A DNA stretch of 64,000 nucleotides from Synergistaceae bacterium (GTDB lineage: Bacteria; Synergistota; Synergistia; Synergistales; Aminobacteriaceae): positions 2,873 to 66,872 of the forward strand of contig JAFSLR010000313.1 in NCBI GenBank assembly GCA_017448375.1, written 5' to 3'. Within the stretch, counting starts at the first letter, position 1, and each line of letters starts with the position of its first letter. The translations under genes were made by a program, and so were the position numbers. Below are positions 18,065 to 36,760 of the stretch, piece after piece. Under the pieces are notes generated by a model that ran no database searches, had not been told where the DNA came from, and was given only the letters and a program-made list of their open reading frames with translations.

Positions 18065-19372
18065 CTATTCCTCGAAAAATATGGAATCGAAGCCTGTAGT
18101 CTCTAGTATTTCCATGACCTGCGGACGCACATTCTCTAGGAAAATATCGCCCTTCTTTTTCATAATGAGCAGAACACGAAGCCCCGCAGATGATATATAC
18201 TGAAGGTCAGCACAGTCGACATATACCATTTTGATATTCTTGGCTACCTTCTCATAAAATGACAGAATCTTGGGAGCTGTCAGTGAATCGATTCTGCCCG
18301 CCAGAGAAATGAAGAGTTTTTCTCCTTCTATCTGCGCTTTAATATCGAAGTTCTTTTCGGCGATACCTGATGTATCTATTTCCTCTCTGACTGCTGGTGC
18401 ACCCATGGAAGTGATTTTCCAGTATGCATTCCGCTTCATGGCTTCTTTTACGGCAACGACCTGCTCAGGCTTAAGTTTCTCGAATACTTTAAGTTCAGGC
18501 ATGTGATCAGCAACGATCATTCTCTCTGCTTTAAGGCCGTGTTTTGCCAAAAATTCCATAGCTTTTTTGATGTCCTCTGTAATATCGTCTTTTGGGCGAT
18601 TTTTAATAACGTCTTTCGGATCAATGACCAGCGAGTTGCCTTGAACAGCTGTGTCCGATTTATCCTCTACCCGTTTCTTCATGGAGTCCAGAGCCGCAAA
18701 CGCTCTGTCGCCAAGAATGGCTTTTACGACGAGGAGATAAGCCATGAGCCACTCCGGATCAATGGTGAGCCAACATCCTCCATGTTCGTCCAAAATTCTC
18801 TTCACATTGTCGCATAACGCCCCGACTTCTGAGTCGTTGAAATAGACCATGAGACCTTCTGTAGTGATGACAACTTTTCCCTTTACATCAGACAGCGCGG
18901 CCTTCAGCGAGTCATAGTTAGTTGCATCGACACCAGCAAACTTCACCATCTTTTTCTGTTTGTCATTCAGAAGCGTATTTATGGCAGGTTCAACTTCTGT
19001 AATGGTAGCCGGAAGATCAAGGCCTATGAACCTGTGTCCTGCTTTTATGTATCTTAGAGCCTTTGGCAGGTAACCGCATGGAAGATCGATTTCTGTGAAC
19101 TCCCCTTCCGACAAGGCTATTTTCTCAATAGTGTGATACCTCATATCCATCAGCAGACTCTCAATCAAGAGCTTAACCGCGTCTGAAGTTGTTGTGGCGC
19201 TATTCTGAGTATCTTCAGTGAGACCGAGTTTTTCAACCAGACGGATTGAGTCTTCATCACCCGATGCTGCCAGTTGATAGAGTGTCATTTTTGCAGTATT
19301 AAAAATAGGATTTGCCTGCTCCAGAAATTCAGCATCTACCTTAAGATCATCTAAGCTGAATAAATTGTTCAT
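18065..19372 (-). CDS. Class I SAM-dependent methyltransferase (LCMT/TcmP-like) fused to a C-terminal STAS domain
   Basis: IDLPCGYLP..FIGLDLP and VVITTEGLMVYF (SAM-MT motifs). The C-terminal GRIDSLTAPKIL..DCADLQYISSAGLRVLL..ILETTGF matches the SpoIIAA/STAS pattern. Confidence 0.7.
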   Translation of the reverse strand: MNNLFSLDDLKVDAEFLEQANPIFNTAKMTLYQLAASGDEDSIRLVEKLGLTEDTQNSATTTSDAVKLLIESLLMDMRYHTIEKIALSEGEFTEIDLPCGYLPKALRYIKAGHRFIGLDLPATITEVEPAINTLLNDKQKKMVKFAGVDATNYDSLKAALSDVKGKVVITTEGLMVYFNDSEVGALCDNVKRILDEHGGCWLTIDPEWLMAYLLVVKAILGDRAFAALDSMKKRVEDKSDTAVQGNSLVIDPKDVIKNRPKDDITEDIKKAMEFLAKHGLKAERMIVADHMPELKVFEKLKPEQVVAVKEAMKRNAYWKITSMGAPAVREEIDTSGIAEKNFDIKAQIEGEKLFISLAGRIDSLTAPKILSFYEKVAKNIKMVYVDCADLQYISSAGLRVLLIMKKKGDIFLENVRPQVMEILETTGFDSIFFEE

Positions 19373-19386
19373 TATGATTCTTCTTT

Positions 19387-19920
19387 CTAGAGTTCATTCT
19401 CTGCCAAAAACTTCTTCAATTCCTCGATCACTTTCGCTCCGTCGTAATCCTTGAATATTTTGACGAAACAGCCGCTAATCATCGGATTCAGAGCAAGCCC
19501 CATCTCCGCAGACCTGCAGTCCGTCATTAACCCATAACATCTTTTCTTGTTGGCGTAAGCAATGCCAAGTTCTACACATGCCCCCTCATCCGGAACGCGT
19601 CCGTCCAGTACCATGAAGAGAACATCTGCCTTGAGAATTTCGCTGACATCTTTATTGAAGATCATTCCGGTCTTCTCTGTCTCGTTTTTATTTTCCAGCT
19701 CTGATGCTAAGAAGCCGTCACGCTGAGGGAGAAAGACCGAGTAACCGTGATCCTCAAGGATTTTTGCGAGAAAGAGGTTGTAATCCCTCTCACTCTGTGA
19801 GAAGAGAGGCGCAGCGAAGTAGATAGAACCTTTTGATGTGGTAGTAGTATCTGCGGCTTCTAAAGTTACGGCTGTTCCCAGTAAGATTGTCATGATTACT
19901 AAACAGGTCAGAATTTTCAT
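19387..19920 (-). CDS. Nucleoside 2-deoxyribosyltransferase-like protein with N-terminal signal peptide
   Basis: Signal peptide MKILTCLVIMTILLGTAVTLEA. IYFAAPLFSQSER and DGRVPDEGACVELGIAYANKK match the NDT/DNPH1 family core, including the catalytic-type Glu. Confidence 0.65.
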   Translation of the reverse strand: MKILTCLVIMTILLGTAVTLEAADTTTTSKGSIYFAAPLFSQSERDYNLFLAKILEDHGYSVFLPQRDGFLASELENKNETEKTGMIFNKDVSEILKADVLFMVLDGRVPDEGACVELGIAYANKKRCYGLMTDCRSAEMGLALNPMISGCFVKIFKDYDGAKVIEELKKFLAENEL

Positions 19921-20976: not shown

Positions 20977-23394
20977 TCAATCTAGGTTCACACTTGGAGT
21001 GCCAAATACTCTCTGTTCCAGTGCTTTAATCCTTGCTTCCGCTGCGTTGATGTAGATTTCGGAATCTGTTTTTCTATAGATAACTACTGCTTTTTTCAGG
21101 CATTCGATGGCTTTATCAGCATTCTGTGCGTATTCCCATATTTTAGAGCGGAAATGCCAATCTTTTGCAATGTCGATATGATCCGGTCCTAGAAGCGGAA
21201 GCAACGTTTCACGAGCCACTTGGCTGTAATGAAGAGCGTCTTCTATTTTCCCTTCCCTGGCCAGAAGTACTGCGTATATTTCATATGAAAAACTTCTTGA
21301 GTAATCATCATGAAACATGTTGAAGTGTGCAATTCCTTGCTGAATCATCTCTATCGCTTCGTCATAGCGACCCAGAAGGTAGAGAATCTTAGAAAGATGA
21401 TATTCAGACCAACCCATTGCCTGCTCCGGCGTACAGCTATAAAATACGGAACAGAGTGCGTGGTTTTTTAGTTCCTGAGCATAGGCGGCCTCATAGTTTC
21501 CTAGCGAATAGTTTGCTTCTACGATACGTCCAGCGTTGTGTTGCATTAGATCACCTTCGAAACGGTCTATATCCTCGATCGGAACATCCTTTGTCAGTGC
21601 AGCTCCCTCCTCCGCAACAACGAGGCCTTCTTGATTCCTGCCGATCAGGATTAGTCCGTGAGCTAGTTTGTCGTAGCCATAGAGCTTCTGATACCGGAGA
21701 GGCGCTTCTACGATCAATTTTTTGCAGTCATCAAAGACCTGCTTGTAGAGGGAAAGGTCATAAACACGACCAATCTTTATGATGAGTGCATTCCAGTAGA
21801 GCGGGTGATTTTTCGGGAGGCGACGGCACATGGTATCTGCAATCTCCTTGATGCGGAACCGTTCCATCACAGGAAGTTGTGGACCCCATTTATAGGTCTC
21901 ATAGAAACTTGTAACCATCCTATGACAGCACTCTGAGTCCTTTTCTAACTCCTCCAGCATAAGATCGGCAATGAGGGGATGAAGGTGTACAGTATCCTGC
22001 ACCTCGTCATGAATGATCCAGCTACGTGCAATAAGACTGTCGATTAGGTCATAGTCTTCAAAACCGCACCATTTATAGAAGGTTTCCACATGAATGCCGA
22101 CGTTTGAGATTAGGGATAGATTTTTCAGGAGTCTCACTTCTTCCGCCGAAAGAGTGGACAGACGAAAGACCGCCCGGAGCCTTCCAAATATTTGATCTGC
22201 AAGTTTCTCGTTTTCCCTAAGGTTATGCAGCCGGTCATCTCTCAGTAGTTCTAACATCTTCTCCGGCTTTATCCGCCTTGACTGCATAGCTGAAGCCACC
22301 AGGCGGATACTCAGGGTATGGCGGTCAAGCAGGGTAATCAACTTCCGAACGATTTCTGTATCGACAGGTCCCATAGCTCGTGTATATTCGGAACGGAAGA
22401 CGGCAAGAAGCTCCTCATCGTTCTGCATTGGCTGCACTTCCATTTCGCGGTGCGCGCACCCTTGATGTATTCGTGTCGTGAAAATTACGCTATAAGTTCC
22501 GGAGAGGAATAGATCCAAGTCCGGGTCTCCATCCACATCAAAATTATCGACTACGATCAGGATTCTATGGTCCGCAATTCGCTTCATCAGTTCAATTTTC
22601 CTTCGTCCGTAGGCTTCATCGGAGTCAGCAGTAAATTCAGTTCGCTGTATCCCGTCAATGGGAAATGCGGAATCGCTGGCAAGAGTATGAGCAAGGCTTC
22701 CTTCAAAGGGTACCCACAGGACGGCATTGTAACGTTCAGCGTTTTCCTTGACATACATTTTAGCGAGCTCACTTTTTCCGAGTCCGCCCATTCCAACAAG
22801 AAACAGCTTATTGTATGTTCCGGATAGCTGTTCCTTAATGTAACTTAGTTCGTTCCTGCGTCCGACAAATTTCGTATCTGGGTAGACTAAAGATGTGATC
22901 AGTCTGTAGTTTTTTACAGGGAAAATGGTCTCTCCTGATAAAGCAGGAGTGGAAGTTAGCTCGACAAACTGCTCCTTTCCAAGAAGCCTTGAGACACGAT
23001 CTACTAGTTCCCGCACCTTGAGTAGTTCTGGTGGAATACCGCCATTCATGATGTGAATGCGCCCCAAGAAATAATACATGTCGTCACTAAGCTGGCATTG
23101 CTCAATCTGAAAAGGAAGGAGAGATATATCCTCATGGTTCTTGAAACGCTCGAAAGCGATATTAACCTCGTTGAAGCAATGCTCAGATAGATTTGACTTG
23201 CTATTTAAAACAAGTAAAAAGACTCGGCAGTACCGTATTGCTCGCACGATGGAACGAGCGTAATCATCGCTGCAGTCCCGCGGTGCGTACCAACAACTGA
23301 TTCTGGCGCTCTCCAGTGCAACAGCTAACTTATGCACAATATCTCCAGCACTGTCTGTGTGATAACTTATGAATACATCTCGCTTCTCATCCAT
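20977..23394 (-). CDS. TIR - NB-ARC (STAND NTPase) - TPR protein
   Basis: ORF track 20977..23454. ATG 23394 with GAGGA upstream gives MDEKRDVFISYHTDS (TIR betaA). SEHCFNEV is a TIR Glu motif. P-loop GMGGLGKSE, Walker B ILIVVDNFD, C-terminal TPR-like helices. Confidence 0.85.
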   Translation of the reverse strand: MDEKRDVFISYHTDSAGDIVHKLAVALESARISCWYAPRDCSDDYARSIVRAIRYCRVFLLVLNSKSNLSEHCFNEVNIAFERFKNHEDISLLPFQIEQCQLSDDMYYFLGRIHIMNGGIPPELLKVRELVDRVSRLLGKEQFVELTSTPALSGETIFPVKNYRLITSLVYPDTKFVGRRNELSYIKEQLSGTYNKLFLVGMGGLGKSELAKMYVKENAERYNAVLWVPFEGSLAHTLASDSAFPIDGIQRTEFTADSDEAYGRRKIELMKRIADHRILIVVDNFDVDGDPDLDLFLSGTYSVIFTTRIHQGCAHREMEVQPMQNDEELLAVFRSEYTRAMGPVDTEIVRKLITLLDRHTLSIRLVASAMQSRRIKPEKMLELLRDDRLHNLRENEKLADQIFGRLRAVFRLSTLSAEEVRLLKNLSLISNVGIHVETFYKWCGFEDYDLIDSLIARSWIIHDEVQDTVHLHPLIADLMLEELEKDSECCHRMVTSFYETYKWGPQLPVMERFRIKEIADTMCRRLPKNHPLYWNALIIKIGRVYDLSLYKQVFDDCKKLIVEAPLRYQKLYGYDKLAHGLILIGRNQEGLVVAEEGAALTKDVPIEDIDRFEGDLMQHNAGRIVEANYSLGNYEAAYAQELKNHALCSVFYSCTPEQAMGWSEYHLSKILYLLGRYDEAIEMIQQGIAHFNMFHDDYSRSFSYEIYAVLLAREGKIEDALHYSQVARETLLPLLGPDHIDIAKDWHFRSKIWEYAQNADKAIECLKKAVVIYRKTDSEIYINAAEARIKALEQRVFGTPSVNLD

Positions 23395-23768
23395 AGTGTT
23401 ATTTTCCTCGTTTTTTTTTCTGTCAATGGTCTTGCAGTACTGCCGCACAAGCACAGTTATAATAACAAAAATGTCCTTATTCTAGAAGCTCCAGCTTAAG
23501 TTGGATTGTCTGGATCACAATGCTTCTTTCCCTTAGCTGTCTAATAACATTAAGGTATAAATATATTTAGTAATTTTTGCCCATTATAACAGTTCTTTTA
23601 TAAAAATATTTTTTATGTTTAGTTTAACGATACTTGATATTATCTGAATTATACTAGAAAATTTCATCTGATTGAACATAGGCGTTGAATGGTGCTGGAG
23701 GCGTTTTTTTTAAAAGTTTTGAAGTAATGATATACTATTTTATAATTTAGCGAAGAGGTATTTCGATA

Positions 23769-25433
23769 TTGGAAGCATCAAGAGATGAAATATTTGATAT
23801 TTTTGTTTCCTACAGGTTCAGTGACGGCGAACTCATAAGCAGGAAATTTGCCGATGCCTTAAAGGAGATGGGATATTCCGTTTATCACAATTCAGACAGG
23901 AATCATAAAGGGAAGTTTCCTGATCGACTGAAGAGAGTGATAGACCACGTAAGGGATTTCCTGCTGATTGTTACGGAAAAGTGTTTGGAACATTTGATTA
24001 ACAGTACCGACTCGGACGGAATTGACTGGGTAAAGGAAGAACTGTTAGAGGCTATTGCGCAGGGGAAGAATATTATTCCTGTAATGATAGCTAATGTTGA
24101 TTGGCCAAAAAACTTATCGGTTTTGTCTAATGAAACCACTTCACTTATCCGGGATTTATCTGAACGTGAGAACATCAGGCTTCCGATTGATTTCGAGAAA
24201 GCACCTCCGCTGATTCTACTTTGCGGGAAACTGGATTCGAGGCCTAATGCTGGTGGTGTATTCAGAAATCAGAAGAATGATCCCAAATATGTTGATGTGA
24301 AGAAGCTGCTAGCTCAGCTCACGGATGAAGCGAATAACGGTAACCCTGTGGCAATGTACCAGCTTGCGGTTTTGTACCGTAACGGACTGGGTGATAAGCC
24401 TCGTGATAGTATCAATGAATATTATTGGCTGAAAAAGTTAATAGAAATTAATGATGAATCGGAGGAGGCGAAAAAGTATAAGGCTCACGCATATTGGCAT
24501 TTGGGTGGAATGTATTATAATGGTGAAGTTCCCGAAGAGAGACAATCATTCGAAGAATCGTATAAGTGTAAAGAGAAGGCTAGTCGTTTATGCCCTGATG
24601 ATTCCTCGTTTAACTCTTCGCTAATGTACATGAAATCATGGGTAGTTGGAGTTGCATTTGATTATGAGGATATTGTTCGTTCTTTTGAGGCTATAGATGA
24701 TTTAGAAAGCGCAGAAGCTAGTATAATTTTGCATCAGGCTGAATTTTATGATAGATATGGGGATTTTTCTCGGGCGATAGATTTATACCTCCGAGTATCT
24801 CATATATATAGCGGTGCTGCCTATAGGTTAGGAATGCTGTATCTGCGAGGGGTAGATTCAAATCCCCCTGATCCAAACGGAGTTTCAGCAGCTCATTACT
24901 TACAGGAAGCCGCAGATATGGGTTCTATAGAAGCGGCATATGAATTAGGAGTACTATATTTTCGTCCGCCTATTTCGAAAACAAGAGCAAAAAATGTCCA
25001 CCAAAACATAAAGAAAGCGATAAAATACTTAAAGATTGCCGCAAATATTAATCATACCAACGCACAATATTATCTCGAATGGATATATTCTCATGATTTA
25101 GGAATTAGTCAGGATATTGCCAAGGCAATTGAATATGGAGAAAACGCTGCAAGAAGTGGCTCGCTAAATGCTATGGTTACCCTTATCAGGTTATATCAGC
25201 ATGAAGAGTGCAAAAATTACGAAAGAGCCTGTCATTATGCGGTTAAAGCTGCAGAAGCCTACCAAGAGGCCGCATTATCTGCGGGGTATTTCTTCTTGTT
25301 TGGATGGGGGTGTGAACCAAATTTGAGTGAAGCAAGAAAATATTTTAGGATGGCCCTTAAGCAGCATACACTTGAAGCTCAATACATGCTGGACTTGATT
25401 CATGAGATAGAGGAGAAAGGCAACCTTGCATGA
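23769..25433 (+). CDS. TIR - Sel1-repeat (SLR) protein
   Basis: DIFVSYRFSDGE.. and IDWVKEELLEA (TIR), followed by Sel1-like units (AMYQLAVLYRNGLG, AAYRLGMLYLRG, AAYELGVLYF). TTG start in the track. Confidence 0.8.
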   Translation: MEASRDEIFDIFVSYRFSDGELISRKFADALKEMGYSVYHNSDRNHKGKFPDRLKRVIDHVRDFLLIVTEKCLEHLINSTDSDGIDWVKEELLEAIAQGKNIIPVMIANVDWPKNLSVLSNETTSLIRDLSERENIRLPIDFEKAPPLILLCGKLDSRPNAGGVFRNQKNDPKYVDVKKLLAQLTDEANNGNPVAMYQLAVLYRNGLGDKPRDSINEYYWLKKLIEINDESEEAKKYKAHAYWHLGGMYYNGEVPEERQSFEESYKCKEKASRLCPDDSSFNSSLMYMKSWVVGVAFDYEDIVRSFEAIDDLESAEASIILHQAEFYDRYGDFSRAIDLYLRVSHIYSGAAYRLGMLYLRGVDSNPPDPNGVSAAHYLQEAADMGSIEAAYELGVLYFRPPISKTRAKNVHQNIKKAIKYLKIAANINHTNAQYYLEWIYSHDLGISQDIAKAIEYGENAARSGSLNAMVTLIRLYQHEECKNYERACHYAVKAAEAYQEAALSAGYFFLFGWGCEPNLSEARKYFRMALKQHTLEAQYMLDLIHEIEEKGNLA

Positions 25434-25451
25434 TAACTGACCATTTGCGCT

Positions 25452-27824
25452 TTACTCTTCACTTTCTTGCGCTGTGCGAATACTTTGCTCTGCATCTTGC
25501 CTTTTTTGTCTGATGCGTACTACATGAGGGTTATCTTCTCCGAGATACTGTTCCATGTCTAGCTCAAGAACGCTGTATAACATGACAGCTTCTTTTAGGT
25601 CGCCTTTGCGATAGGTATGATCAGCTATAGCTTCCCGCGTGTATGCTGTAGTCATGCTTTTATTCCCTAGATTTCTGAATTTAATTTCTAGCGCACAGTG
25701 AAGATTTTTTTCTGCTTTCTCATATTGTCTTATGTGACTATAGCAAATACCTAAGTCTGCTAAAACATATGCACTGCTTGTATTTTCTTCTCCATAATGA
25801 AGCATCATGAAGTCATAATTGCTCTTGCAGAGTGTTATAGCTTCTTCGTATTTCCCTTGCAACATAAGCATACGTTCTCTTGCTATCCTCAAATCCTCAT
25901 ACTGCTCTGGATAAGCATCACCATTTTGAATTAAGTAAAGATACATTTTCTCTGCCTCATCATAATGTCTTACAGCTTCTTCAAAATCTCCGCGTTCAGA
26001 AGCACAGCGGCCAATCTTGAAGCAAGCCTGAGCAAATTTCGCTGATATTGGCGCGTTGCTTGCCCTGTAGTGTTCAAATGATTTCTTATAAAACTGTTCT
26101 GCGGAAGAATCATCACCGCTGTTCAAGTATGCCCCCGCAAGATACAATGCCGCTAGAGCTGCCTGTTCTGACATGTCTCCGTATTCCCTGCATGAGAACG
26201 CATAAAACATTCTGCCCATTTCTTTAGCTTTTTCGTAATCTCCGCAAATCCAGCAAATGTTTACAAAGTCGCTGTATTCTGTGTAAAGAGATTTTACAGC
26301 TTCTGGGAACAAATATAGAAAATGCGACAAAAGCGGATAGTAGTTATTCCTTTCCTCTTCAGTTAGCCACCAGCTATCTTTCATGAGTAACCACAGGCCA
26401 GTTACGTAATCACGGCAATTTTCAGGGTCAGGCTTCAATTCGTTCACAATGACATCACGGATTATGGAGTGCAGTTGAAGCACGTCATTTTCTTTGTCCA
26501 GTACAAGCCAGCTATTATCTATTAGCCCGTTAATTACGTCATAATTATCGAGTTTCAGTATTTGGCCTAATAATGTCGCTTCGATACCGTTCGGAGGAAC
26601 TAATGACATGTACATGAGAATATGTTGCTTATCCTCTGATAGTCTTTCAAGCCTGAAAAGCTGCCGAATGTGATAATAAGAGCTATATTTTTCCGCAGTA
26701 CCTTTCATCTGTACACCCTCTTGCAAGGGCAGATGGATTCCCGAATCTTTCAGCAACTGGAGCATTTTTTCAGGCTTGATGAAACTTGCTCGCATCTGTT
26801 TCGCTATAAGCTCGACAGTTATTGTGTGATAGCTAATCAGATGGAGTATTTCATCTATGATACTCCAATTTTTGACATGGCGGTCATAATATTTCCTGAA
26901 AATATTTCTGACTTGTTCAATGTTCTCAATATGTCCAATGTGAATAACGGGGTAATCGCTGTGATTGTTGCGCGTAGTGATTAAGACGTGGCATGGACAA
27001 TTCAGAATGTCTTCTAAGTATGGATCATTATCTGTGTCGAAGTTATCGATGATTAAAAGTGTTCTTTCGTTCACAATGCGCCGAAAAACATTCATTTTTC
27101 TCTGATACCAAGCCTCAATAGTTTCCTGCTCACTGCGCTGTAGATTCTCTATCAGAATTTCATTGCCGCAGAAAAGTTCCTGCAATCCTGAAATATACCG
27201 CGTAAATATTATTGTGCTGTAACGAGACCTGAAAAGTTCTGCATACCTTCTAGCGATTTCACTTTTTCCGATTCCCCCCATGCCTTGAAGAAATAGAACG
27301 TGCTCACAGGTGAAATGATCTGCAATCTGCTTTATCTCTGAGTCCCTGCCTAAAAATGATTCCTTGGGATATTCTATACGTTCAACAAGTTGCAAGCGAT
27401 TGGGATTAAGGTATACGGCATCTTCATCAGAAACATGAAGTACTCTTTGAAGCAACTCCTCTATTCGTTCTTCCAGAGGAGGCACTGAAGCATCCAGCCA
27501 GTGAGCGGGGGCTAGATGATAGCGCATTTTAGGACTCAGGTCTGTATTGTCTATTTTGAACGGTATAATGTAGTAGCATGTACGTGTAGCTTCGGTTAAC
27601 TCTTTCAGGCATTCCGGCGAATTGATAGTATATTCGCCAACAATGAAGATGAAAATATCCGCCCGCGAAAGACCGTCCATGATTGATCCAGCCCAGTCGC
27701 CAGATGATATATTTCTGGGAGCAATCCAGCATGAAATACCATTTTCCTCAAGTCTACAGCATATTTTCTGAGCAATCGATGAATACTGATGTGCGTGAGA
27801 TATGAATGCCAGATGTTTTTCCAT
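25452..27824 (-). CDS. TIR - NB-ARC (STAND NTPase) - TPR protein, paralog
   Basis: HLAFISHAH.. and SPECLKELTEA (TIR). GMGGIGKSE, LLIIDNFD, FIKPEKMLQLLKD (shared with the 20977 paralog) and TPR repeats. Its start lies 1 nt after the upstream stop. Confidence 0.85.
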   Translation of the reverse strand: MEKHLAFISHAHQYSSIAQKICCRLEENGISCWIAPRNISSGDWAGSIMDGLSRADIFIFIVGEYTINSPECLKELTEATRTCYYIIPFKIDNTDLSPKMRYHLAPAHWLDASVPPLEERIEELLQRVLHVSDEDAVYLNPNRLQLVERIEYPKESFLGRDSEIKQIADHFTCEHVLFLQGMGGIGKSEIARRYAELFRSRYSTIIFTRYISGLQELFCGNEILIENLQRSEQETIEAWYQRKMNVFRRIVNERTLLIIDNFDTDNDPYLEDILNCPCHVLITTRNNHSDYPVIHIGHIENIEQVRNIFRKYYDRHVKNWSIIDEILHLISYHTITVELIAKQMRASFIKPEKMLQLLKDSGIHLPLQEGVQMKGTAEKYSSYYHIRQLFRLERLSEDKQHILMYMSLVPPNGIEATLLGQILKLDNYDVINGLIDNSWLVLDKENDVLQLHSIIRDVIVNELKPDPENCRDYVTGLWLLMKDSWWLTEEERNNYYPLLSHFLYLFPEAVKSLYTEYSDFVNICWICGDYEKAKEMGRMFYAFSCREYGDMSEQAALAALYLAGAYLNSGDDSSAEQFYKKSFEHYRASNAPISAKFAQACFKIGRCASERGDFEEAVRHYDEAEKMYLYLIQNGDAYPEQYEDLRIARERMLMLQGKYEEAITLCKSNYDFMMLHYGEENTSSAYVLADLGICYSHIRQYEKAEKNLHCALEIKFRNLGNKSMTTAYTREAIADHTYRKGDLKEAVMLYSVLELDMEQYLGEDNPHVVRIRQKRQDAEQSIRTAQESEE

Positions 27825-27825
27825 G

Positions 27826-29922
27826 TTAGTTTCCCCTTTTTTCTGGCTTTATAAGCTCCATGACAACATTAACATTATTCCTGTCATTTTTCTTGAAGTC
27901 TCTGTTTCCGTGCGTAACAGAGTTTTCTATCTGTGAAATCTCATCGAGCTTATCCCAGCCCACAAGGCATACGTGTTTTCTTGCTTCTTCATCTTGTCTA
28001 GGTTTTATGTCAGAGCTACCGTGCTCTTGAATTTCGGTCTGCTGCTTTTTGAGCCGCTCAGTAAATTCATCTATCTCCATGACATCGTACCCGAATGTGT
28101 AATGGAAAGCACACCATCTTAGATGTTCGCTCTTTGCGAGATTCTCTTTTTGTATGGGCGTTAATGTATTTGTCCCTACCATTATTTTGCGTATCAGCGG
28201 TATCAAGTAATCGACACTTGCACGGTTGCTCATTCTGTGGAAATATGCACATTGTTTCCAGTCTTCACTTATGCTGTTTCCTTTATCTTTATTGTAATGA
28301 TGGTTAAGCTCCATAGCGTACCTGTCAAGTTCTCCCGAATAAAGCAAATCTGAGTCATATATCGAGTATGTTTCGCATTCCTGTGCAGAGATAGAATAAC
28401 ACCTTACGCTTTTTGAATCACAAGTGTATACATTCTGCGGATGCCCCATAGCGTGGAGACGGTCAGCCATACGTATAGCTATATTCCTTGCAGTATCTCT
28501 GTCTTCAAGGCATATAACTATATATTTTAGCTTTGAGGCGTGTTCCTGAAGGTATTTGAAGCATTCTCCGCTCCTTATGTCGTACTGTTCAAAACCGATA
28601 TCGGCATCGGGCGTTGCAAACATTTTAGAGTACTGCGATCTTACGAAGCCTGTTTTGTCGCCATGTTTAGGATCGAATATCGTAATTTTTAGATTGCTTC
28701 CCTCAAAACGCCCGTTAGCAAGAACTTTCCGCAATACTTCATGACCGATACGCCCGAAACCGCCTATAAGAACCTCTATATCCTCAGTAGCGCATCCGTC
28801 CTTATCGAAATTTATGAAATTGCACAAAGGATATTTATATATCAGGAGGCGGGCATTCATTTCGTACTCGTCAAAGGAAATTACTCTCCCGTAGCCGTAT
28901 TGCTTCTTGTCTGACTGAAAGAGCATCCCTTTTTCTTCATCAGCACCAAGTAGCACTAGTTCTGTCTGTTCAGGGGGTATACCTTCTTTTTTGAGAGTGG
29001 CAGACATCTTGCGTGCGTACTGAAGATTTCTGTCGTAATCCTCCGATAGAGTATAAAGTCTCAGCTTCATATTCTTCTTCCCGATGTGAATTTCTTTCAG
29101 GAATGATGTGGTAGCTTTTAACGCATCTGCACCTGAATACACGAGTCCGCCAAGATTTTGTATTGAAGCCTCATAATTTTCACAGACCATGTTGTCTACA
29201 TATACAAGCAGGTTATCTCCAGTATTTGTGATATTTCTGCTAAATGCGAGAGAGGTTGCATTGATGCCGAACACTAAATCTACACTGGAGACTTGTGTTT
29301 TTGTTCTGACCCACTTAAGCAGGTTATCTCCAAAACGTATAAGCAGTGTGCTTACAGCGGTAAGAAAAGCAATGAGATGAAGTAACCAGAACACAAGAAC
29401 GAGCGGCGGGTATTTAGCTTCCGGCAAACTGAAAAAGACATCAGCATTACCGCGACCATAAAACATCCAGCCTACATCCATGACAGAACTTATGATTACG
29501 TAAAAAACTTTATAGAACCAAGAAGCCTCCTTTGCCCAGACTAGGGAATCGTTTTTTGACAAGCCTAGCTCTAAGCCTCTATAGTGGCAGTAGAAATAGA
29601 AGATCATGCCTCCAAAGAACATCAAAACAAATGCCCATTTCAGTAGGTTTGTTCTTCCATTGGGATACTTTGATATAAGTATTATCAGCTCTGGGAGAAG
29701 AACAATGGAAAGGATACATGCCACAGCAATCTGGAAAGCTCCGTAATGCATAAAACCCATTAAAAGAGTTTCTGCGATAACCATGGAATAGAATGCTACT
29801 TTCAGTGACTTTACTCCATTGTATTTATATTTTAGTACGCAAAGTATAAGAACAATGAGTCCTCCTGATGCCGCTACAATATTGAGGTTATAAACCCGCG
29901 CTAAATCCCCGATATTATTCAT
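27826..29922 (-). CDS. Multi-pass membrane protein with two RCK/TrkA-N-like Rossmann modules and a C-terminal RyR-like repeat
   Basis: About 200 aa of hydrophobic helices. DLVFGINATSLAF.. (degenerate) and VLIGGFGRIGHEVLRKVL (GxGxxG). The C-terminal LAKSEHLRWCAFHYTFGY...KHVCLVGWDKLDE...DRNNVNVVMEL matches the bacterial RyR-domain pattern as I recall it. Confidence 0.55.
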   Translation of the reverse strand: MNNIGDLARVYNLNIVAASGGLIVLILCVLKYKYNGVKSLKVAFYSMVIAETLLMGFMHYGAFQIAVACILSIVLLPELIILISKYPNGRTNLLKWAFVLMFFGGMIFYFYCHYRGLELGLSKNDSLVWAKEASWFYKVFYVIISSVMDVGWMFYGRGNADVFFSLPEAKYPPLVLVFWLLHLIAFLTAVSTLLIRFGDNLLKWVRTKTQVSSVDLVFGINATSLAFSRNITNTGDNLLVYVDNMVCENYEASIQNLGGLVYSGADALKATTSFLKEIHIGKKNMKLRLYTLSEDYDRNLQYARKMSATLKKEGIPPEQTELVLLGADEEKGMLFQSDKKQYGYGRVISFDEYEMNARLLIYKYPLCNFINFDKDGCATEDIEVLIGGFGRIGHEVLRKVLANGRFEGSNLKITIFDPKHGDKTGFVRSQYSKMFATPDADIGFEQYDIRSGECFKYLQEHASKLKYIVICLEDRDTARNIAIRMADRLHAMGHPQNVYTCDSKSVRCYSISAQECETYSIYDSDLLYSGELDRYAMELNHHYNKDKGNSISEDWKQCAYFHRMSNRASVDYLIPLIRKIMVGTNTLTPIQKENLAKSEHLRWCAFHYTFGYDVMEIDEFTERLKKQQTEIQEHGSSDIKPRQDEEARKHVCLVGWDKLDEISQIENSVTHGNRDFKKNDRNNVNVVMELIKPEKRGN

Positions 29923-30050
29923 ACTCTACACTGTCCCTTTACGAAAAATTATTTTGTGCGTATTGAAATTTATTATACATTGGACGTCGAAAATTGAATA
30001 CATGCTGTATAATAAAAACCATAATAAAATAAAATTAGGAAGTATTAGCG

Positions 30051-30188
30051 ATGTCAAAACTTACATACAAGACGAAGGGCAATTCCTCCCCGCAGGGAAA
30101 ACCCAGAGTTTTCTTCTCATGTAATCCGAAAGATTTTGAATATTATATCGTTTTGTCGACAGATAGTAGAAAGCGGTCAGGAAAATGA
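30051..30188 (+). pseudogene. 45-codon stub resembling the N-terminus of a TIR-like protein (possible remnant)
   Basis: MSKLTYKTKGNSSPQGKPRVFFSCNPKDFEYY.. then a stop. Another frame continues ..DIVESGQENDFKECLNRIKSF. Looks like a deletion-scarred gene. Confidence 0.3.
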
Positions 30189-30453
30189 TTTCAAGGAGTG
30201 CTTGAACCGAATAAAAAGTTTTACCCGATACCAGAGAAGAGCCTTAGAACCTGTTCAGTATCCCATGGAAACGTAATATAATCTTCTTATTTATGGAGTT
30301 CATCTGAAATTTAATTTAAGGAGGTGGATAAACGTGGGATGAACATATACATTTTAAGTTTTTTAGCTATAATAAATTATAATGCAAAAACGAGTAGCAG
30401 TAACTGTACGGAATAGTCATTCTAAAAGTGCTGTTTTTCTGTGTATTTGCTGA

Positions 30454-33400
30454 TTGCTCTTTGCACAAAAAGCAAATTTGAATAAAGAAGGATTAAAAAA
30501 GAAGGAATCAATCATTAAACAGAAATATTACGCATTTATAAGTTACAGTCATAAAGATCAAAAAATAGCGAAGAAACTTCAAACAAGATTACAGCATTAT
30601 CACCTTCCAACATCGTTGCGAAAAGCGAATCCAGATTTACCGAAGAATCTTCGCCCAATTTTTATTGATGAATCGAATCTCGTTGGTAGTGTTTTGAAGG
30701 AAGCGCTTCAGAATAATCTTAGTCAGTCGAAGTACCTGATTCTGATTTGCTCGCCGAACAGTGCGAAATCTGAATATGTGAACGATGAGGTCAGATACTT
30801 CATAGAGAATGGCAAGGGTGACAGAATTATTCCGTTGATTGTAGATGGTGTGCCACATTCTGAACGTGAATGCTTTCCGCCGGCACTTCTCGAACTTCCC
30901 AGAGAACGTGAACTACTTGGGATCGATTTGAAAAAATTTGGAGTTCGTGGGGCATTCCTTCGAGTGATAGCGACAATGCTGGGACTTGATTTGGATAATT
31001 TCGTTTCGTATGAGGATCGGATCAGAAGGAAACGAAGCATGATCTTAACCTCTATCGCAGCAGCGATTATGTTTTTTGCTGGATTCTTAATCTGGCAGAA
31101 TGTCCCCCACACGCACTATTATCGAACGTATGTCTACCGTTGGGAAAAACCAATCGGATTATTCGAAGTAGAATCCGAAGCTGCTCGTAAAAGAATGGCG
31201 TACACTTACAAATTCACAACTTTGAAGGGAGAAGTTCAGAAGATTGAGCGCATAAATTCAGCCGGAGTTCTGGTTAATCCGTTAAATCCTACACCGCTTC
31301 TCGAACCAGCCAAAGTTGAATTTCGTCCGGATAGTTCAGTCGATTATTTTGACATTTACGGACACAGAATTTACAGGAAAAGACATTTGAGTATGAGAGT
31401 TGTCGATTTTTATTGTGGAAAATATAGTGAAATTCCTTACGCTTTTCAGTTCGATAATCTTAGTGTTCTTGATTCGGAGTTAGAAGATCCCGGAACCAAT
31501 GGGGGGCGAGAGAATATAGATACAGGAAATATTATCCGTATGACACTTGAATTTGATGATAACGGTTACATAGTCAAGCAAATTTTCCGTCGTACTGCTG
31601 AGAGTGGCAAGGACAAACGCGGTTTTTTCACTCGCGATAAAAAGGGCAGATGGGGGTTGGGTTATACAGTTGATGAACTCGGAAGAATCACAGCAATTCA
31701 CAATTTAAACTTGAAATGGGAAATTATGCCGATTCAGGGGATTTATACTCAGAAATTCGACTATGAAAATTCTCCGTATCCTGTGAAAATTTCATATGCT
31801 GGTAAAGACGGTGAACCTGTTGAGGGCGAGGATGGGTACGCATTTACGACCGTAAGTTATGATGAGTATTTCAATGCCGTCAAAGTGTCAAATTTTGATA
31901 CTGATGGAAAGCTCACCACAGATATTTCTGAAACACGCTACACCTATGATACAAACGGCTTCAGAACTTCAGAAAGCTATTACGATGCGAATCTCGAACC
32001 TATTCTTGTCAGAGAGGGCTATTTCTGCGTTAAATTTACAAATGACACAAATGGTAGAATTATTAGAGGTTCTTACTATAACACCAAAAACGAAAAAACC
32101 GTATGTTTAAGTGGATACGCAGAGTTTGTTCGTAAGCTCAACGAAAATGGTCAGCTTTTGCTAGAGACTTATTATGATGTTGAAGGAAATTCAGTTGCAA
32201 ATTACCACAATAATATTGTATACGCTTGCAAGATCACTTATGAAAATGGATTTATTCATAAAATCGAAAATTTGGATCAAAATGGGAATCTAACGCTCAA
32301 CGACGAAGATTTTGGCTATGCATCACAAATAAGGACGTATGACACTGACGATGATAAGATCGTTGGAATAACTTATCTTGACACGGAAGGCAACAAAATT
32401 CTTATATCAGACGGGTTCTCTGAAGGATTTGCCGAGATACGTTACACATATGATACAGGCAACATAACCAGCGTATCGTTCTATGGCGATAAAGGAGAGG
32501 CAGTTTGTGTATATGATACTGCAAAAACAGTTTATGAGTGGGAAAACGGGAGTATGATTTCCGTTAAATTTTTCGGAACAGATGGGAACCCTGCTATAGC
32601 CAGGGGGTACTCCAAAGCTGAATATGAGTACGACGAGAATGGTCTGCAAATCTGGGAGCGATATTATGGAGTGAACGGCGAACGTGTAAATACCACATTT
32701 GCACGTGAAGCACTTCCTGGTGTTGATGGGCGTTCTGCAATCAAACACACTTATGATTCAGATGGAAATGAACTGACTTATGAAGAATTTGACGCAAACG
32801 ATAATTCTATCTCATTCAGCGTTATGAATATAAGTGATGAAGCTGAAAAGGTTGAGTGGCTCAGAAATGCTGCTGAACAAGGCGACGCGCGAGCGCAATA
32901 TACTCTCGGTGAGATGTATCACGGGGGGCTGAGTGTTGAGAAAAAATATGTTGAAGCTGCAAAGTGGTTCAGGAAAGCTGCTGAACAGGGGTACGCATAC
33001 GCACAATTTAATCTTGGCAATATGTATTACAACGGTGAAGGTGTCAAGAAAAATAAATCTGAAGCTGTAAAGTGGTTCAGAAAAGCTGCAGATCAGGGCT
33101 ATGCCTATGCACAATTCAATCTTGGTAATATGTATTACAACGGTGAAGGTATCAAGAAAAACAAATCTGAAGCTGCAAAATGGTTTAGAAAAGCTGCCGA
33201 ACAAGGAGATGCGGAAGCACAATTTAATCTTGGCGATATGTATTACAATGGTGATGGCGTCAAGAAAAATAAATCCGAAGCGGTCAAGTGGTTTAAGGAA
33301 GCTGCATTACGAGAAGATAACGATGCGCAGTATACTCTTGGAGTAATGTATTACAATGGTGAAGGTGTTGTGCAAAATAAACCTGAAGCTGTTGAATGGT

Positions 33401-33516
33401 TCACAAAGGCTGCAGAAGGCGGTGTTTCTGAAGCAGTCGAATGGCTCAGGAAAGCATCTAAACAAGGAGTTATCGAGGCTCAAAACGCGCTCAAAGAACT
33501 GGGCGAAACTTGGTAA
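30454..33516 (+). CDS. TIR - transmembrane helix - YD/RHS-like repeat - Sel1-repeat protein (1020 aa)
   Basis: YAFISYSHKDQ.. and SEYVNDEVRYF (TIR). TM helix MILTSIAAAIMFFAGFLIW. Repeated Y.YD..G units (RYTYDTNGF, EYEYDENGL, HTYDSDGNE). Six or more Sel1 units at the C-terminus. TTG start is uncertain. Confidence 0.8.
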   Translation: MLFAQKANLNKEGLKKKESIIKQKYYAFISYSHKDQKIAKKLQTRLQHYHLPTSLRKANPDLPKNLRPIFIDESNLVGSVLKEALQNNLSQSKYLILICSPNSAKSEYVNDEVRYFIENGKGDRIIPLIVDGVPHSERECFPPALLELPRERELLGIDLKKFGVRGAFLRVIATMLGLDLDNFVSYEDRIRRKRSMILTSIAAAIMFFAGFLIWQNVPHTHYYRTYVYRWEKPIGLFEVESEAARKRMAYTYKFTTLKGEVQKIERINSAGVLVNPLNPTPLLEPAKVEFRPDSSVDYFDIYGHRIYRKRHLSMRVVDFYCGKYSEIPYAFQFDNLSVLDSELEDPGTNGGRENIDTGNIIRMTLEFDDNGYIVKQIFRRTAESGKDKRGFFTRDKKGRWGLGYTVDELGRITAIHNLNLKWEIMPIQGIYTQKFDYENSPYPVKISYAGKDGEPVEGEDGYAFTTVSYDEYFNAVKVSNFDTDGKLTTDISETRYTYDTNGFRTSESYYDANLEPILVREGYFCVKFTNDTNGRIIRGSYYNTKNEKTVCLSGYAEFVRKLNENGQLLLETYYDVEGNSVANYHNNIVYACKITYENGFIHKIENLDQNGNLTLNDEDFGYASQIRTYDTDDDKIVGITYLDTEGNKILISDGFSEGFAEIRYTYDTGNITSVSFYGDKGEAVCVYDTAKTVYEWENGSMISVKFFGTDGNPAIARGYSKAEYEYDENGLQIWERYYGVNGERVNTTFAREALPGVDGRSAIKHTYDSDGNELTYEEFDANDNSISFSVMNISDEAEKVEWLRNAAEQGDARAQYTLGEMYHGGLSVEKKYVEAAKWFRKAAEQGYAYAQFNLGNMYYNGEGVKKNKSEAVKWFRKAADQGYAYAQFNLGNMYYNGEGIKKNKSEAAKWFRKAAEQGDAEAQFNLGDMYYNGDGVKKNKSEAVKWFKEAALREDNDAQYTLGVMYYNGEGVVQNKPEAVEWFTKAAEGGVSEAVEWLRKASKQGVIEAQNALKELGETW
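32850..33480 (+). repeat. Tandem ~108-nt coding repeats (Sel1 units) with high nucleotide identity
   Basis: Successive units read ..AVKWFRKAA(E/D)QG(Y/D)A(Y/E)AQFNLG(N/D)MYYNG(E/D)G(V/I)KKNKSEA.. with near-identical DNA. Confidence 0.8.
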
Positions 33517-33934: not shown

Positions 33935-36760
33935 ATGAGAAAGTATGGCATTGTGATAATGGTGATGTTTGTGCTTGCGGTGAGTTCGTGCGCATGGGCC
34001 GATAAACTTTTTGATTGTCCGATAAAGAATGTTCCTGCGAGTATTTCTTGCCTATATGGAGATGCAGGTTATAAGGGGCACACCGGCTATGATTTAAAAG
34101 CTGATTACGGTACTCCTATATACGCGCTGTTTGACGGTAAAGTTACGTACAGGGTGATTTACAGCGACAGAAAAAATGATGAGAAATACCATTCATGGAG
34201 CTATGGGAATGTCTTAGAGCTTACGAGCGATGGGGTGATTGAAGGGAATAGATATTCAATGCTTGTTGCGCACCTGAGTGAGTTTGACGGGAAAAGATAT
34301 ACTGTCCCATCTACAATAGATGGAATTGAACTCATCTGTGATCATGATGATGTTGCTGACAGAGGGTCTTATGACGGTGTCCCTAAAAAATGGATATGTG
34401 AAGAAGGTATGCCAGTCAAGAAGGGGCAACTGATAGGTTATTCTGGTAACTGTGGGAACTCAACAGGGGATCACCTTCATATTGAAATAAGAGTGAATGG
34501 GAGATTAGTTGATCCAGATGGCTACATATCTAGAGAACGTTTTGTAGGAGAATATGTAGAGTCTGTGAAAATAGATGAAGATAACTTTCCGGATGAGAAA
34601 TTTCGCGCAGCATTATTAAATCGATATGACCCTAATCATGACGGCATATTAACTGGAGAGGAAATAGAAAATATCAATAGCTTATTTATTGAGTTAGAGG
34701 GCATATCTAATCTCAAAGGAATTGAATACTTCACGGTCCTTAAAGGGCTTTTCTGCGATCAGAATCTGCTAACGGAATTAGATGTCAGCAAAAATACAGC
34801 TCTTGAGCAACTTAATTGTGATAATAACCAGTTAAGGGTTCTTGATGTTGGCAATAATACTGCTCTTAGAATCCTTTACTGCCATAACAATCAGCTTGTA
34901 TCACTTGATGTAAGCGGCTGTTCAGATCTGCAATATCTGTATTGCAATAGTAATCAATTAACCGCACTAGATTTGAGCGGCTGTAATGCTCTGAAGCATA
35001 TCGAGTGTAATAAGAACCAGTTGACAACACTGGATATAGATGGTTGTTCTAAACTGCAAGAGCTGGACTGTTCAAGTAACAAGCTGACTACGCTTGATTT
35101 TGGTAGCCAGATGTACAGAGACAGTTGTACCAATCTTTTAGAGTTAAATTGCTCTAATAACCAGTTAAACGATCTGGATATGGGTAGTTGTCATGCTCTT
35201 CAAACTCTTACATGCTCATATAATACATTAACCACTCTTAATTTGAGTGGTTGTAAGCATTTATATAGTATTACCTGTGATCATAATCTGCTGACTGTAA
35301 TTGATATAACTAGCTACCCACAGGCAATTGTGTTTTGTGATGAGGGTGTTAACGTAATTCGTGAATCTAAGCCCAAAATCACCACGACATCTCCTGATGA
35401 TGCGGTATTGGGTATGCTGTATTCCTTCCAGCTTACAGCAACAGGCTCTGATACTATAACGTGGACATATACAGGAACCATTCCTGAAGGTCTTAATTTT
35501 AGTGCATCAGGTCTCATTATCGGAATACCAACTAAAGCGCAAACGTGTACCTTTGTTGTGAAGGCATTAAACAGTTATGGTGAAGATACAAAAGAGTTGA
35601 CGCTAACAGTATCATCTTCATCTCCTATTAGTATCACCACATCTAGCCTCAAAACCGGAACAATCGGGAAGTCCTACAGTGTAACGCTCAAAGGCAAAGG
35701 AACAAAGCCACTCACGTGGTCAGCAGAGGGGCTTCCCAATGGTCTCAAGTTCAGCGAGAAGGGAAAAATCTCCGGCAAACCGATAGAGTTCGGGACGTTT
35801 AATGTGAAGTTTACACTCTCGAATGGTGCAGGGAGTACTACGAAGGAATTACCGCTTACGATCAAAGGTATTCCGCCGAAGATTTCCGGCAGTCTCGCAA
35901 AAGCTGAACTTAATGTGCCCTACTCTTCCGGTTTAAGACTCACGAAGGGAAGTCAGCCTATCACGTGGAGTGTAACAGGGAATCTTCCTGAAGGACTCTC
36001 ATTCGACGCATCAACAGGAATCATCTCAGGTACCCCAGAGTCCTACAAGAGTTCAGGCTTCAAACTCACAATAACAGCTTCCAATGGTGCTGTGGAGAAG
36101 TCGAAGTCTGTGAAGCTCAAGGTTAAGGGAACGAAGCCCAAGATCACAACTAGCCTGCCGAACGCAACGGTAGGACAGCCATATACAGCTGCTCTAACCG
36201 CAACAGGAAGTGAGCCAATCACATGGACAGCGACGAATCTTCCTGAAGGTCTCAGCCTTAATGGGGATACAATTTCTGGCACACCAACTGGAGCGGCGAA
36301 GTCCTATAAGGTGAAGCTAGTGGCGAAAAATCCTGTGAAGTCCGTCAAGAAGACTGTGACTCTCAAGGTCAACGCAGCATCTGCCCAAAGTGCCCCCGTA
36401 ACGTCTCAGGGAGACGAGGAGTTGTATTCATTCGGCGAGTATTCGCCACTTCCAGAGTTGAAGCTCACGCCAGAGTTGGAACTCACGAAGGGGTATACCG
36501 TTGTTGCGGAGCTTGGAACAATATCGGCTGACGAAGCTGGAATGTACGAGTTCGATGTAGTGTTGAGCGATAACGCCCCAGAGGGAGCGGAATTAGTGTA
36601 TATCGCCAATTCTGACAATCCTTCGGAGGACGATGAGATAGTGGAGTTCTATGATGAAACTGGAGCAGAGACCACAGTAGTTCCCGAAAACCGAAACATT
36701 ACTGTGTCGATATGGCTGAACGAAGGAGTAATTTACTCTCCAGTTATAGCAGTGAAATAA
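33935..36760 (+). CDS. Secreted M23 (LytM-type) metallopeptidase - leucine-rich repeat - multiple Ig-like (He_PIG-like) domain surface protein
   Basis: Signal peptide. HTGYDLKADYGTPIYALFDG and GDHLHIEI (M23 HxxxD/HxH). About 10 LRR units (L..LD.S.C..L..L.C..NQLT.LD). Five repeats of ..ITW...G.LPEGL.F....G.ISG.P. Confidence 0.85.
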   Translation: MRKYGIVIMVMFVLAVSSCAWADKLFDCPIKNVPASISCLYGDAGYKGHTGYDLKADYGTPIYALFDGKVTYRVIYSDRKNDEKYHSWSYGNVLELTSDGVIEGNRYSMLVAHLSEFDGKRYTVPSTIDGIELICDHDDVADRGSYDGVPKKWICEEGMPVKKGQLIGYSGNCGNSTGDHLHIEIRVNGRLVDPDGYISRERFVGEYVESVKIDEDNFPDEKFRAALLNRYDPNHDGILTGEEIENINSLFIELEGISNLKGIEYFTVLKGLFCDQNLLTELDVSKNTALEQLNCDNNQLRVLDVGNNTALRILYCHNNQLVSLDVSGCSDLQYLYCNSNQLTALDLSGCNALKHIECNKNQLTTLDIDGCSKLQELDCSSNKLTTLDFGSQMYRDSCTNLLELNCSNNQLNDLDMGSCHALQTLTCSYNTLTTLNLSGCKHLYSITCDHNLLTVIDITSYPQAIVFCDEGVNVIRESKPKITTTSPDDAVLGMLYSFQLTATGSDTITWTYTGTIPEGLNFSASGLIIGIPTKAQTCTFVVKALNSYGEDTKELTLTVSSSSPISITTSSLKTGTIGKSYSVTLKGKGTKPLTWSAEGLPNGLKFSEKGKISGKPIEFGTFNVKFTLSNGAGSTTKELPLTIKGIPPKISGSLAKAELNVPYSSGLRLTKGSQPITWSVTGNLPEGLSFDASTGIISGTPESYKSSGFKLTITASNGAVEKSKSVKLKVKGTKPKITTSLPNATVGQPYTAALTATGSEPITWTATNLPEGLSLNGDTISGTPTGAAKSYKVKLVAKNPVKSVKKTVTLKVNAASAQSAPVTSQGDEELYSFGEYSPLPELKLTPELELTKGYTVVAELGTISADEAGMYEFDVVLSDNAPEGAELVYIANSDNPSEDDEIVEFYDETGAETTVVPENRNITVSIWLNEGVIYSPVIAVK

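Follow-up and report, generated by a model that had tools for sequence, protein, structure and literature searches.

The DNA analysed here is a window of 64,000 nt from a Synergistaceae metagenome-assembled genome (MAG; assembly GCA_017448375.1, contig JAFSLR010000313.1, positions 2,873 to 66,872 of the forward strand), and its subject is a cluster of genes for TIR-domain proteins at window positions 20977-33516. This interval carries five large genes, four of which encode TIR proteins within 12.5 kb; they are called P1 to P5 below, and the window proteins are deposited at NCBI as MBR0168629-35. An initial annotation had listed the four TIR proteins, and open reading frames (ORFs), Pfam and, for P2, a match to SARM1 confirmed them at the positions given. 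Its domain calls, catalytic glutamates and duplication stood as well, while the fifth gene of the interval, P4, had gone unmentioned. The cluster was found identical on at least 23 metagenome contigs.

P1 (20977-23454, minus strand; ORF list and Pfam) is a TIR-NB-ARC-TPR protein of 825 aa when read from a GTG; the gene callers start it at the ATG at 23394, giving 805 aa (20977..23394). P3 (25452-27824, minus strand; ORF and Pfam) has the same architecture in 790 aa. In both proteins Pfam detected TIR_2, NB-ARC (28.3 and 24.1 bits; cutoff 23.5) and TPR (TPR_12), and the Walker A motifs read GMGGLGKSE and GMGGIGKSE, respectively. An N-terminal effector domain, a STAND NTPase core with Walker A and a C-terminal repeat sensor are thus all present. 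The two proteins are 30% identical across 503 aa and have an IKPEKML block in common, in agreement with the one-third identity estimated earlier by eye, and the old duplication proposed for them was upheld by orthologs of both that travel as a pair at two other loci (L098 and L100, see below).

P2 (23769-25433, plus strand; 554 aa) was identified from its ORF, phmmer and Sel1 as a soluble SARM1-type TIR protein with Sel1 repeats. The Pfam scan performed here returned Sel1 alone and precomputed Pfam assignments add TIR_2; in phmmer, residues 8-115 at the N-terminus matched the TIR domain of human SARM1 (E 8e-14), and DWVKEEL fell on the SARM1 catalytic segment DWVHKEI. P5 (30454-33516, plus strand; 1020 aa) was described using Pfam and hydrophobicity. 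It consists of a TIR domain (TIR_2/ThsB_TIR, residues 21-185), a single hydrophobic segment directly after it (residues 195-213), a YD-like region and Sel1 repeats. The label YD comes from reading the sequence and not from Pfam, since RHS_repeat had no match in P5; the same Pfam family matched homologous partners at locus L058. The four glutamate motifs quoted in the initial annotation are present, and following alignment with the SARM1 TIR fragment, Glu occupied the column of SARM1 VHKE in 52 of the 59 aligned sequences, the four window TIRs among them.

PADLOC recognised no system in the cluster, consistent with the earlier statement that it belongs to no named one; P1 and P3 gave weak TIR-level matches and no Avs family. 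Membership of P1 and P3 in the FxSxx-COOH group (NCBIfam FxSxx_TPR) was rejected on scores of 73 and 106 bits versus a 300-bit cutoff, and no radical-SAM gene was noted among the annotated neighbours. P4 and P5 diverge from a 531-nt intergenic region (29923..30453, from the gene layout). A promoter and terminator scan of the cluster remained at the level of shuffled sequence, so promoters of P4 and P5 in this gap are only presumed. On one contig (L002, 14431-16855, corresponding to window P1) P1 is split into ORFs of 547 and 246 aa in an otherwise identical cluster, and part of the population therefore either can do without P1 or is losing it.

P4 (27826-29922, minus strand; 698 aa by ORF) is a channel-like membrane protein deposited as a 'hypothetical protein' (MBR0168630.1). 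Its stop codon lies 1 nt from the start codon of P3 (junction AAAAGGGGAAACTAA-C-ATG), and an AGGGG motif resembling a Shine-Dalgarno sequence is found within the end of P4, just upstream of the P3 start; P4 and P3 are translationally coupled. The P4 family comprises 297 clusters at 50% identity (E<=1e-30). Neither P4 as a whole nor its fragments had a match in Pfam, PADLOC or NCBIfam, and its domains were assigned by way of predicted structures and paralogs. An AlphaFold2 (AF2) model of the complete protein reached a mean predicted local distance difference test score (pLDDT) of 81.5, and three regions were distinguished.

Residues 1-208 (29299..29922, minus strand) are a helical membrane region by predicted secondary structure. 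Its pore-like motif is degenerate: S-V-M-D-V-G-W-M-F-Y-G-R stands at the pore position, ahead of the inner helix, the T-V-G-Y-G filter is absent and Pfam Ion_trans_2 gave no match. Residues 213-520 (28363..29286, minus strand) form two Rossmann/RCK-like modules according to the AF2 model and fold match, the second of which carries GFGRIGHEV (GxGxxG). This region has weak profile matches to GAPDH, TrkA_N and other NAD-binding families, TrkA_N reaching E 0.011 at most, in 4 of 39 family members. When the whole model was compared with the PDB using Foldseek, GsuK, a K+ channel with tandem RCK domains, ranked first, ahead of Slo1/BK and KefC; the GsuK match had E 2.5e-4 and probability 1.0, yet TM-scores were low (0.22-0.30). 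A comparison of whole P4 with viral structures was discarded, as Rossmann-fold noise was dominant and no RyR proteins were returned.

Residues 524-698 (27829..28353, minus strand; EHLRW ... KHVCLVGWDKLDE) are helical in the AF2 model and were assigned as a RyR-repeat (R12-like) domain from hhalign and the model. Modelled alone, this domain reached a pLDDT of 92.4, and its top 10 PDB matches in Foldseek were all RyR repeats (Repeat12-type; probability up to 0.99, TM-score 0.50). The best E-value was weak (0.19), so the fold match only corroborates the profile evidence. Pfam RyR (PF02026) did not match P4 or its C-terminal fragment, and 2 of 39 family members reached E 0.015.

The profile evidence came by way of a shorter relative. 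P4 homologs in other genomes often stand in tandem with a paralog of ~520 aa, in which Pfam detects Ion_trans_2 and RyR (the latter at 6.6e-8) and which matches, by sequence, the KvAP pore at 1.5e-11 and RyR-repeat PDB structures at 1.4e-13. These short paralogs carry the canonical K+ filter TLTTVGYGD at the place where the long P4 form aligns with a conserved DVGxMFYGR. The two families were joined by hhalign with a probability of 100% and E 1.6e-39 from the inner helix through the C-terminus, the inner helix of P4 being aligned with that of the K+-channel paralogs. By these profiles and models the P4 C-terminus appears homologous to proteins that match Pfam RyR, with the same predicted fold.

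A tandem pair of a long form (~620 aa, degenerate filter) and a short form (~520 aa, TVGYGD, full RyR ligand motif) was seen at 17 loci (L031, L034, L050-L054, L059, L060, L066, L068, L073, L081, L084, L086-L088), and at L035 and L058 the P4-family ORF measures ~1140 aa, about the combined length of the two. Together these suggest that the channel is a heteromer in which one subunit conducts and the other regulates. On another contig of P0104, a MAG whose locus tags have the same IJQ08_ prefix as the window proteins, a second P4 paralog was found, partial and with 56% identity (IJQ08_06490). P0104 is probably the MAG of the window, and at least two channel modules are probably present in this genome.

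Phage proteins with a RyR domain bind or cleave 2'cADPR, 3'cADPR and cyclic ADP-ribose (cADPR), using as ligand residues H-x-x-W, a His 22 residues on and K-D 16-17 residues further (PMC13232231; 10.64898/2026.06.04.730250). The domain of these proteins, RyDEP and RyR Tad, is the same R12/RyR-repeat domain (PF02026), and the short channel paralogs keep every cADPR-contacting residue at identical spacing. In P4 itself H600 and W603 (of EHLRW) and the downstream His are kept, but the long form differs from the phage proteins in an E-N for K-D and an insertion. The phage proteins are, moreover, small soluble viral sponges or glycosidases, whereas P4 is a bacterial membrane protein that has the domain at its cytoplasmic C-terminus and is encoded next to TIR genes, so that the P4-type domain stands on the host side. 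No P4 relatives were found in IMG/VR viral contigs.

The neighbourhood of P4 was examined as follows. A scan of species-representative genomes with a P4 profile gave 188 relatives, and 80 loci were analysed, from Synergistaceae/Fretibacterium, Lachnospiraceae, Butyrivibrio, Oscillospiraceae, Solobacterium and others; TIR genes were called with an iterated profile that started from the TIR domains of P1, P2, P3 and P5. Such a gene was directly adjacent to P4 at 33 of the 80 loci, within two genes at 6 and elsewhere in the locus at 3. A further 12 loci without a TIR gene were truncated, and at 7 the P4 ORF had been lost to the gene-set filter, several of these having a TIR ORF that adjoins the P4 match by coordinates. 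TIR frequency fell with distance from P4, from 33/134 for immediate neighbours through 8/117, 6/104 and 3/94 to 1/89 at five genes; at six genes or more it was 0/260, versus 25% directly beside. P4 recurs beside TIR genes, and these are of many architectures and are found across phyla.

The TIR partners of P4 carry Sel1, LRR, TPR, RHS/YD, beta-propeller or PDZ modules, or none. One hydrophobic segment follows the TIR domain directly in 50 of 62 distinct partners, so that the typical partner, with a TIR-transmembrane (TIR-TM) layout, looks like P5. In other Synergistaceae the closest P4 clade is usually partnered by proteins of the P5 type (TIR-TM-Sel1), which directly follow P4 homologs at L007, L012-L014, L017, L019 and L022. 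The four closest P4 relatives, examined independently through precomputed Pfam assignments, had TIR or DUF4062 neighbours in all four cases; DUF4062 has been reported as a TIR-like NADase family. The channel is followed by a TIR protein and a TIR-NB-ARC-TPR protein at L179 and is surrounded by DUF4062-TPR, TIR-TPR/Sel1 and TIR-Sel1 proteins at L178, and the loci L177 and L180 adjoin restriction-modification (RM) genes. DUF4062 partners were rejected as an explanation of the P4 loci without TIR, since no DUF4062 N-termini occurred in the fetched loci. The large neighbours of P4 at L009, considered as STAND relatives of P3, were likewise rejected for lack of similarity.

Six loci from Solobacterium and relatives (L066, L068, L072, L074, L079 and L082) have in common a protein of ~880-945 aa without a Pfam match, which may be an extra component. 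At these loci it is followed by a ~280-aa TIR-TM protein and a 686-aa TIR-TM-TPR protein, all three being encoded downstream of the channel gene or genes. In the ~280-aa protein the alignment puts Arg in the catalytic column, possibly through a one-residue shift from a neighbouring Glu.

The reciprocal search was carried out in metagenomes, with an alignment of P3 and P1 as the query. A gene for a TM-Rossmann-RyR protein lay just upstream in 6 of 16 TIR-STAND loci with enough upstream flank, two of the six (L116 and L132) being near-identical; the truncated locus L118 also has an upstream channel gene and was counted apart. At L098 the channel is followed by orthologs of P3 (48% identity) and P1 (48.5%). 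At L100 the order is channel, P2 ortholog (32%, full length, E 1e-81), P3 ortholog (47%) and P1 ortholog (49%), all co-directional and with gaps below 30 nt. The minus strand of the window reads P4, P3, [P2 inverted], P1, and from these orders P1 and P3 are therefore two old paralog lineages that travel jointly with a channel and often with P2. At L121 a P1-like STAND protein is followed by a P5-like TIR-TM protein. The window itself looks to us like a P4+P5 module merged with a P3-P2-P1 cassette, with one shared channel.

The initial annotation would have been refuted by a lack of linkage between its architectures in other genomes; the single operon with P2, P3 and P1 orthologs at L100, together with L098 and L121, speaks in its favour. 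Its emphasis on TIR-Sel1 beside TIR-STAND did not hold as such, since the conserved tie is that of TIR proteins of whatever second module with the channel; overall, the earlier interpretation was partly supported. As a candidate Thoeris-like variant, the actual unit would comprise several TIR sensors arrayed about a channel-like effector with a RyR domain. L116 and L132 also encode (15655-18424), in one locus with the channel gene and the TIR-STAND gene, a protein of 923 aa that starts with two TIR-like modules in tandem and continues with BspA-type leucine-rich repeats.

We give about even chances to a reading of the locus as a Thoeris-like system of TIR signalling in which P4 is the channel-type effector. 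The four TIR proteins would serve as sensors: P1 and P3 as cytosolic STAND ATPases with TPR sensors, P2 as a soluble SARM1-type TIR with Sel1 repeats, and P5 as a single-pass membrane protein with its TIR domain inside the cell and its YD/Sel1 repeats outside. A trigger would cause the TIR domains to oligomerise, and the catalytic Glu would then convert NAD+ to a nucleotide derived from ADP-ribose (ADPR), most likely a cADPR isomer. This nucleotide would bind the cytoplasmic RyR-repeat domain of P4, possibly with participation of the RCK-like Rossmann modules, upon which P4 would open or disrupt a membrane ion path. The K+ gradient or membrane potential would collapse, and the cell would be arrested, by abortive infection or growth arrest.

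The proposal draws on the linkage of P4 and TIR genes seen in both searches, the 1-nt spacing of P4 and P3, the Glu conserved in the TIR domains, the homology of P4 to short paralogs with a TVGYGD pore and the RyR ligand residues, and the precedent of varied effectors in Thoeris. Several findings weigh against it. The long P4 form of the window lacks the canonical K+ filter, and its RyR domain has an insertion of ~25 residues and a near-invariant E-N at the ligand K-D position; both the pore function and the ligand of P4 are uncertain on these grounds. P4 also falls below the Pfam thresholds for RyR, TrkA_N and Ion_trans_2, and the fold-match E-values are weak. RyR domains can be cADPR glycosidases, as in RyDEP (PMC13232231), and the P4 domain could therefore degrade the signal and not sense it. 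No TIR gene was present at 19 of the 80 P4 loci although full flanks were available, which is about a quarter of the full-flank loci. About two thirds of the P3/P1-like TIR-STANDs are found without a channel, so such proteins probably can act alone, for example as NAD+-depleting Avs-like effectors. Finally, most of the 129 genes that flank P4-TIR modules are of the housekeeping kind, and few of the 129 were matched by PADLOC.

Two readings that keep the association of TIR proteins and P4 were weighed against the signalling proposal. According to the first, which we hold to be unlikely, the TIR proteins are effectors that burn NAD+ once triggered, like the TIR-bearing effectors of Avs, CBASS and SPARTA, and the Rossmann modules of P4 read the resulting fall in NAD+/NADH or rise in ADPR, the ion response being secondary. 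It is favoured by the GxGxxG kept in the second P4 module and by GsuK, tandem-RCK itself, as the best fold match. GsuK is regulated by NAD+/ADP. The many P3/P1-like STANDs without a channel would also suit it, as do the Avs TIRs, which the Thoeris preprint treats as NAD+-depleting effectors and not as signal makers (10.64898/2025.12.03.692087). The pattern of conservation points the other way: the RyR motif is conserved across all TIR-linked membrane subtypes, whereas GxGxxG is missing from several partners, and the short paralogs retain the complete set of residues with which phage RyR proteins contact cADPR.

The second reading, to which we likewise give a low probability, retains the biochemistry of the signalling proposal and assigns it a role other than anti-phage defence. 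Gut and rumen anaerobes would use the module for envelope or environment sensing, with outward Sel1, LRR, YD or propeller domains detecting an external or cell-wall cue and the channel adjusting K+ flux or membrane potential. The TIR-TM-repeat topology of 50 of the 62 partners, with its Sel1, LRR, RHS, beta-propeller and PDZ modules, counts in favour of this reading. The mostly metabolic flanks with few PADLOC matches also speak for it, including a P4-TIR module inside a purine biosynthesis operon at L007 and L022, as does the lack of relatives in viral contigs. Against it, the partners in the window and in the closest relatives include STAND NTPases and DUF4062-STAND proteins, and S subunits of type I RM systems, MmeI and AAA_15/21 proteins are encoded nearby; such genes are typical of conflict systems. 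The sensor modules are exchanged rapidly and TIR genes stand in arrays of several copies, both of which resemble diversifying immune receptors.

Coincidence would mean that a variable island happens to hold four TIR defence genes which act independently, next to a housekeeping gene of the K+-transport type with no relation to them. It would fit the different strands of P1, P2, P3 and P5, the frequent solitary occurrence of P1/P3-like proteins and the lack of a PADLOC system, but it is very improbable and largely refuted by the steep distance-dependent TIR enrichment beside P4 across phyla, the channel-(P2)-P3-P1 operon that recurs at L100 and L098 at 30-49% identity and the 1-nt gap between P4 and P3.

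The signalling proposal was compared with known systems. Thoeris types I-XI likewise consist of a gene for a TIR protein with a catalytic Glu that adjoins a dedicated effector gene, often for a membrane protein, and the proposed logic, a TIR-made ADPR-derived signal that activates the effector, would be the same. In type I Thoeris several TIR genes may accompany one effector. The effector here differs in being a protein of ~700 aa with TM segments, two RCK-like modules and a RyR repeat, and the TIR proteins are large sensors (STAND-TPR or TIR-TM-repeat) instead of small ThsB proteins. The Thoeris preprint lists 29 putative types, including a type X with an 'ion channel' effector, and describes the pairing of TIRs with varied effectors, among them membrane proteins and an ion channel (10.64898/2025.12.03.692087). 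As given there, its pipeline dropped Avs-type TIRs and required a defence-island context, which most P4 loci lack. The P4 family is concentrated in Synergistota and Clostridia from rumen and gut, mostly outside defence islands, and screens guided by such islands may for that reason have not reported it. The terms RyR, RCK and Trk do not occur in the text or stored tables of the preprint, including part of its Table S1, and a full-text literature search of incomplete coverage turned up no account in which TIR genes and channel proteins of the RyR/RCK kind are paired.

Type X Thoeris resembles the present case in the pairing of a TIR with a predicted ion-channel effector. In the preprint it is represented by a small ThsB-type TIR with ThsK from Bacillus sp. 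BH32, the signal molecule being unknown (10.64898/2025.12.03.692087). A corresponding Bacillus cereus-group gene (L096:4319-4987; 222 aa, range ~222-246 aa) was taken as ThsK from its adjacency to the type X TIR gene (13-nt gap) and from consecutive IMG gene IDs. It encodes a membrane protein with no Pfam match and, unlike P4, no RCK or RyR modules. Homology of P4 with this effector was rejected, since hhalign gave a probability of 0.2% for the two families, which are unrelated. An attempt to reach the type X effector through plasmids was abandoned, all matches being type II Thoeris (TIR + Macro), and it was found through a protein search and contigs.

P1 and P3 resemble Avs/AVAST and NLR-like TIR-STAND proteins in their TIR domain, NB-ARC-type STAND NTPase with GMGGxGKS and TPR sensor. 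They differ in that no PADLOC Avs model matches them, in the conserved pair of P3-type and P1-type paralogs and in the operon with a RyR-domain membrane protein at about a third of P3/P1 loci. With the SARM1/cADPR/RyR axis of animals the locus has in common a SARM1-type TIR, in P2, and a RyR Repeat12-type domain on a protein of a channel family, and with the RCK-gated K+ channels GsuK, MthK and BK a predicted tandem RCK-like gating region beneath a K+-channel-type pore. Unlike the Ca2+ pore of animal RyR, the pore is of the 2-TM K+ type, homology to RyR is confined to the repeat domain, and the functional link between TIR and channel is drawn here from gene neighbourhood alone.

A broader proposal is possible, though we lean against it. 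Bacteria would have a pathway from TIR through a cADPR-type nucleotide to a K+ channel gated by a RyR domain; RyR Repeat12 would have begun on an ion channel, as a bacterial receptor of nucleotides made by TIRs, phages would have borrowed the domain for use in sponges or glycosidases (RyDEP, RyR Tad), and the animal SARM1/cADPR/RyR axis would be a descendant or a parallel. The usual upstream sensors would be single-pass TIR membrane proteins with the topology of Toll-like receptors, with outward LRR, Sel1, YD or propeller domains and a cytoplasmic TIR domain.

If true, the signalling proposal would add to TIR-based bacterial signalling a new class of effector, a channel with a nucleotide pocket of the ryanodine-receptor type. 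It would provide the host-side counterpart to the phage RyR-domain proteins described in 2026 and so explain what the viral proteins imitate. Whether and how cADPR is linked to the ryanodine receptor, long a matter of debate, could be tested in a simple bacterial system of two genes, and bacteria would possess a large, fast-varying set of membrane receptors with a Toll-like layout, the repeat sensor outside and the TIR domain inside.

Other genes of the window were recorded as follows. Directly upstream of the TIR cluster, at 18065-19920 (minus strand), lies an operon of two genes, the first for a Nuc_deoxyrib_tr protein of 177 aa (E 6.5e-22) and the second for a protein of 435 aa that has a STAS domain at its C-terminus. 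PADLOC matched neither protein. The deoxyribohydrolase-type fold has been grouped with TIR and SLOG (Kaur et al. 2020), and the operon could be another nucleotide-based conflict pair. Downstream, at 33935-36760 (plus strand), a 941-aa protein with Peptidase_M23, LRR, four He_PIG Ig-like domains and PKD is encoded 418 nt from P5 and co-directional with it, and was read as a surface or secreted peptidoglycan hydrolase.

Near 8 kb gene orientation and cumulative GC skew both switch. The adjoining stretch 8253-17965 contains genes for two ankyrin-repeat proteins, a 765-aa protein with a helix-turn-helix and an IstB/DnaA-like ATPase, ParA and ParB, as well as a fragment with Helicase_C that is similar to type IV restriction enzymes. 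This stretch may serve replication and partition, or an integrated element that borders on the TIR cluster may have its edge here. Finally, at 46812-50064 (minus strand) a 612-aa protein fuses a MatE/MurJ-type transporter with HATPase_c_2, and beside it lie two IS605 OrfB/TnpB-type fragments (198 and 232 aa) that adjoin each other and look like a single gene broken in two.

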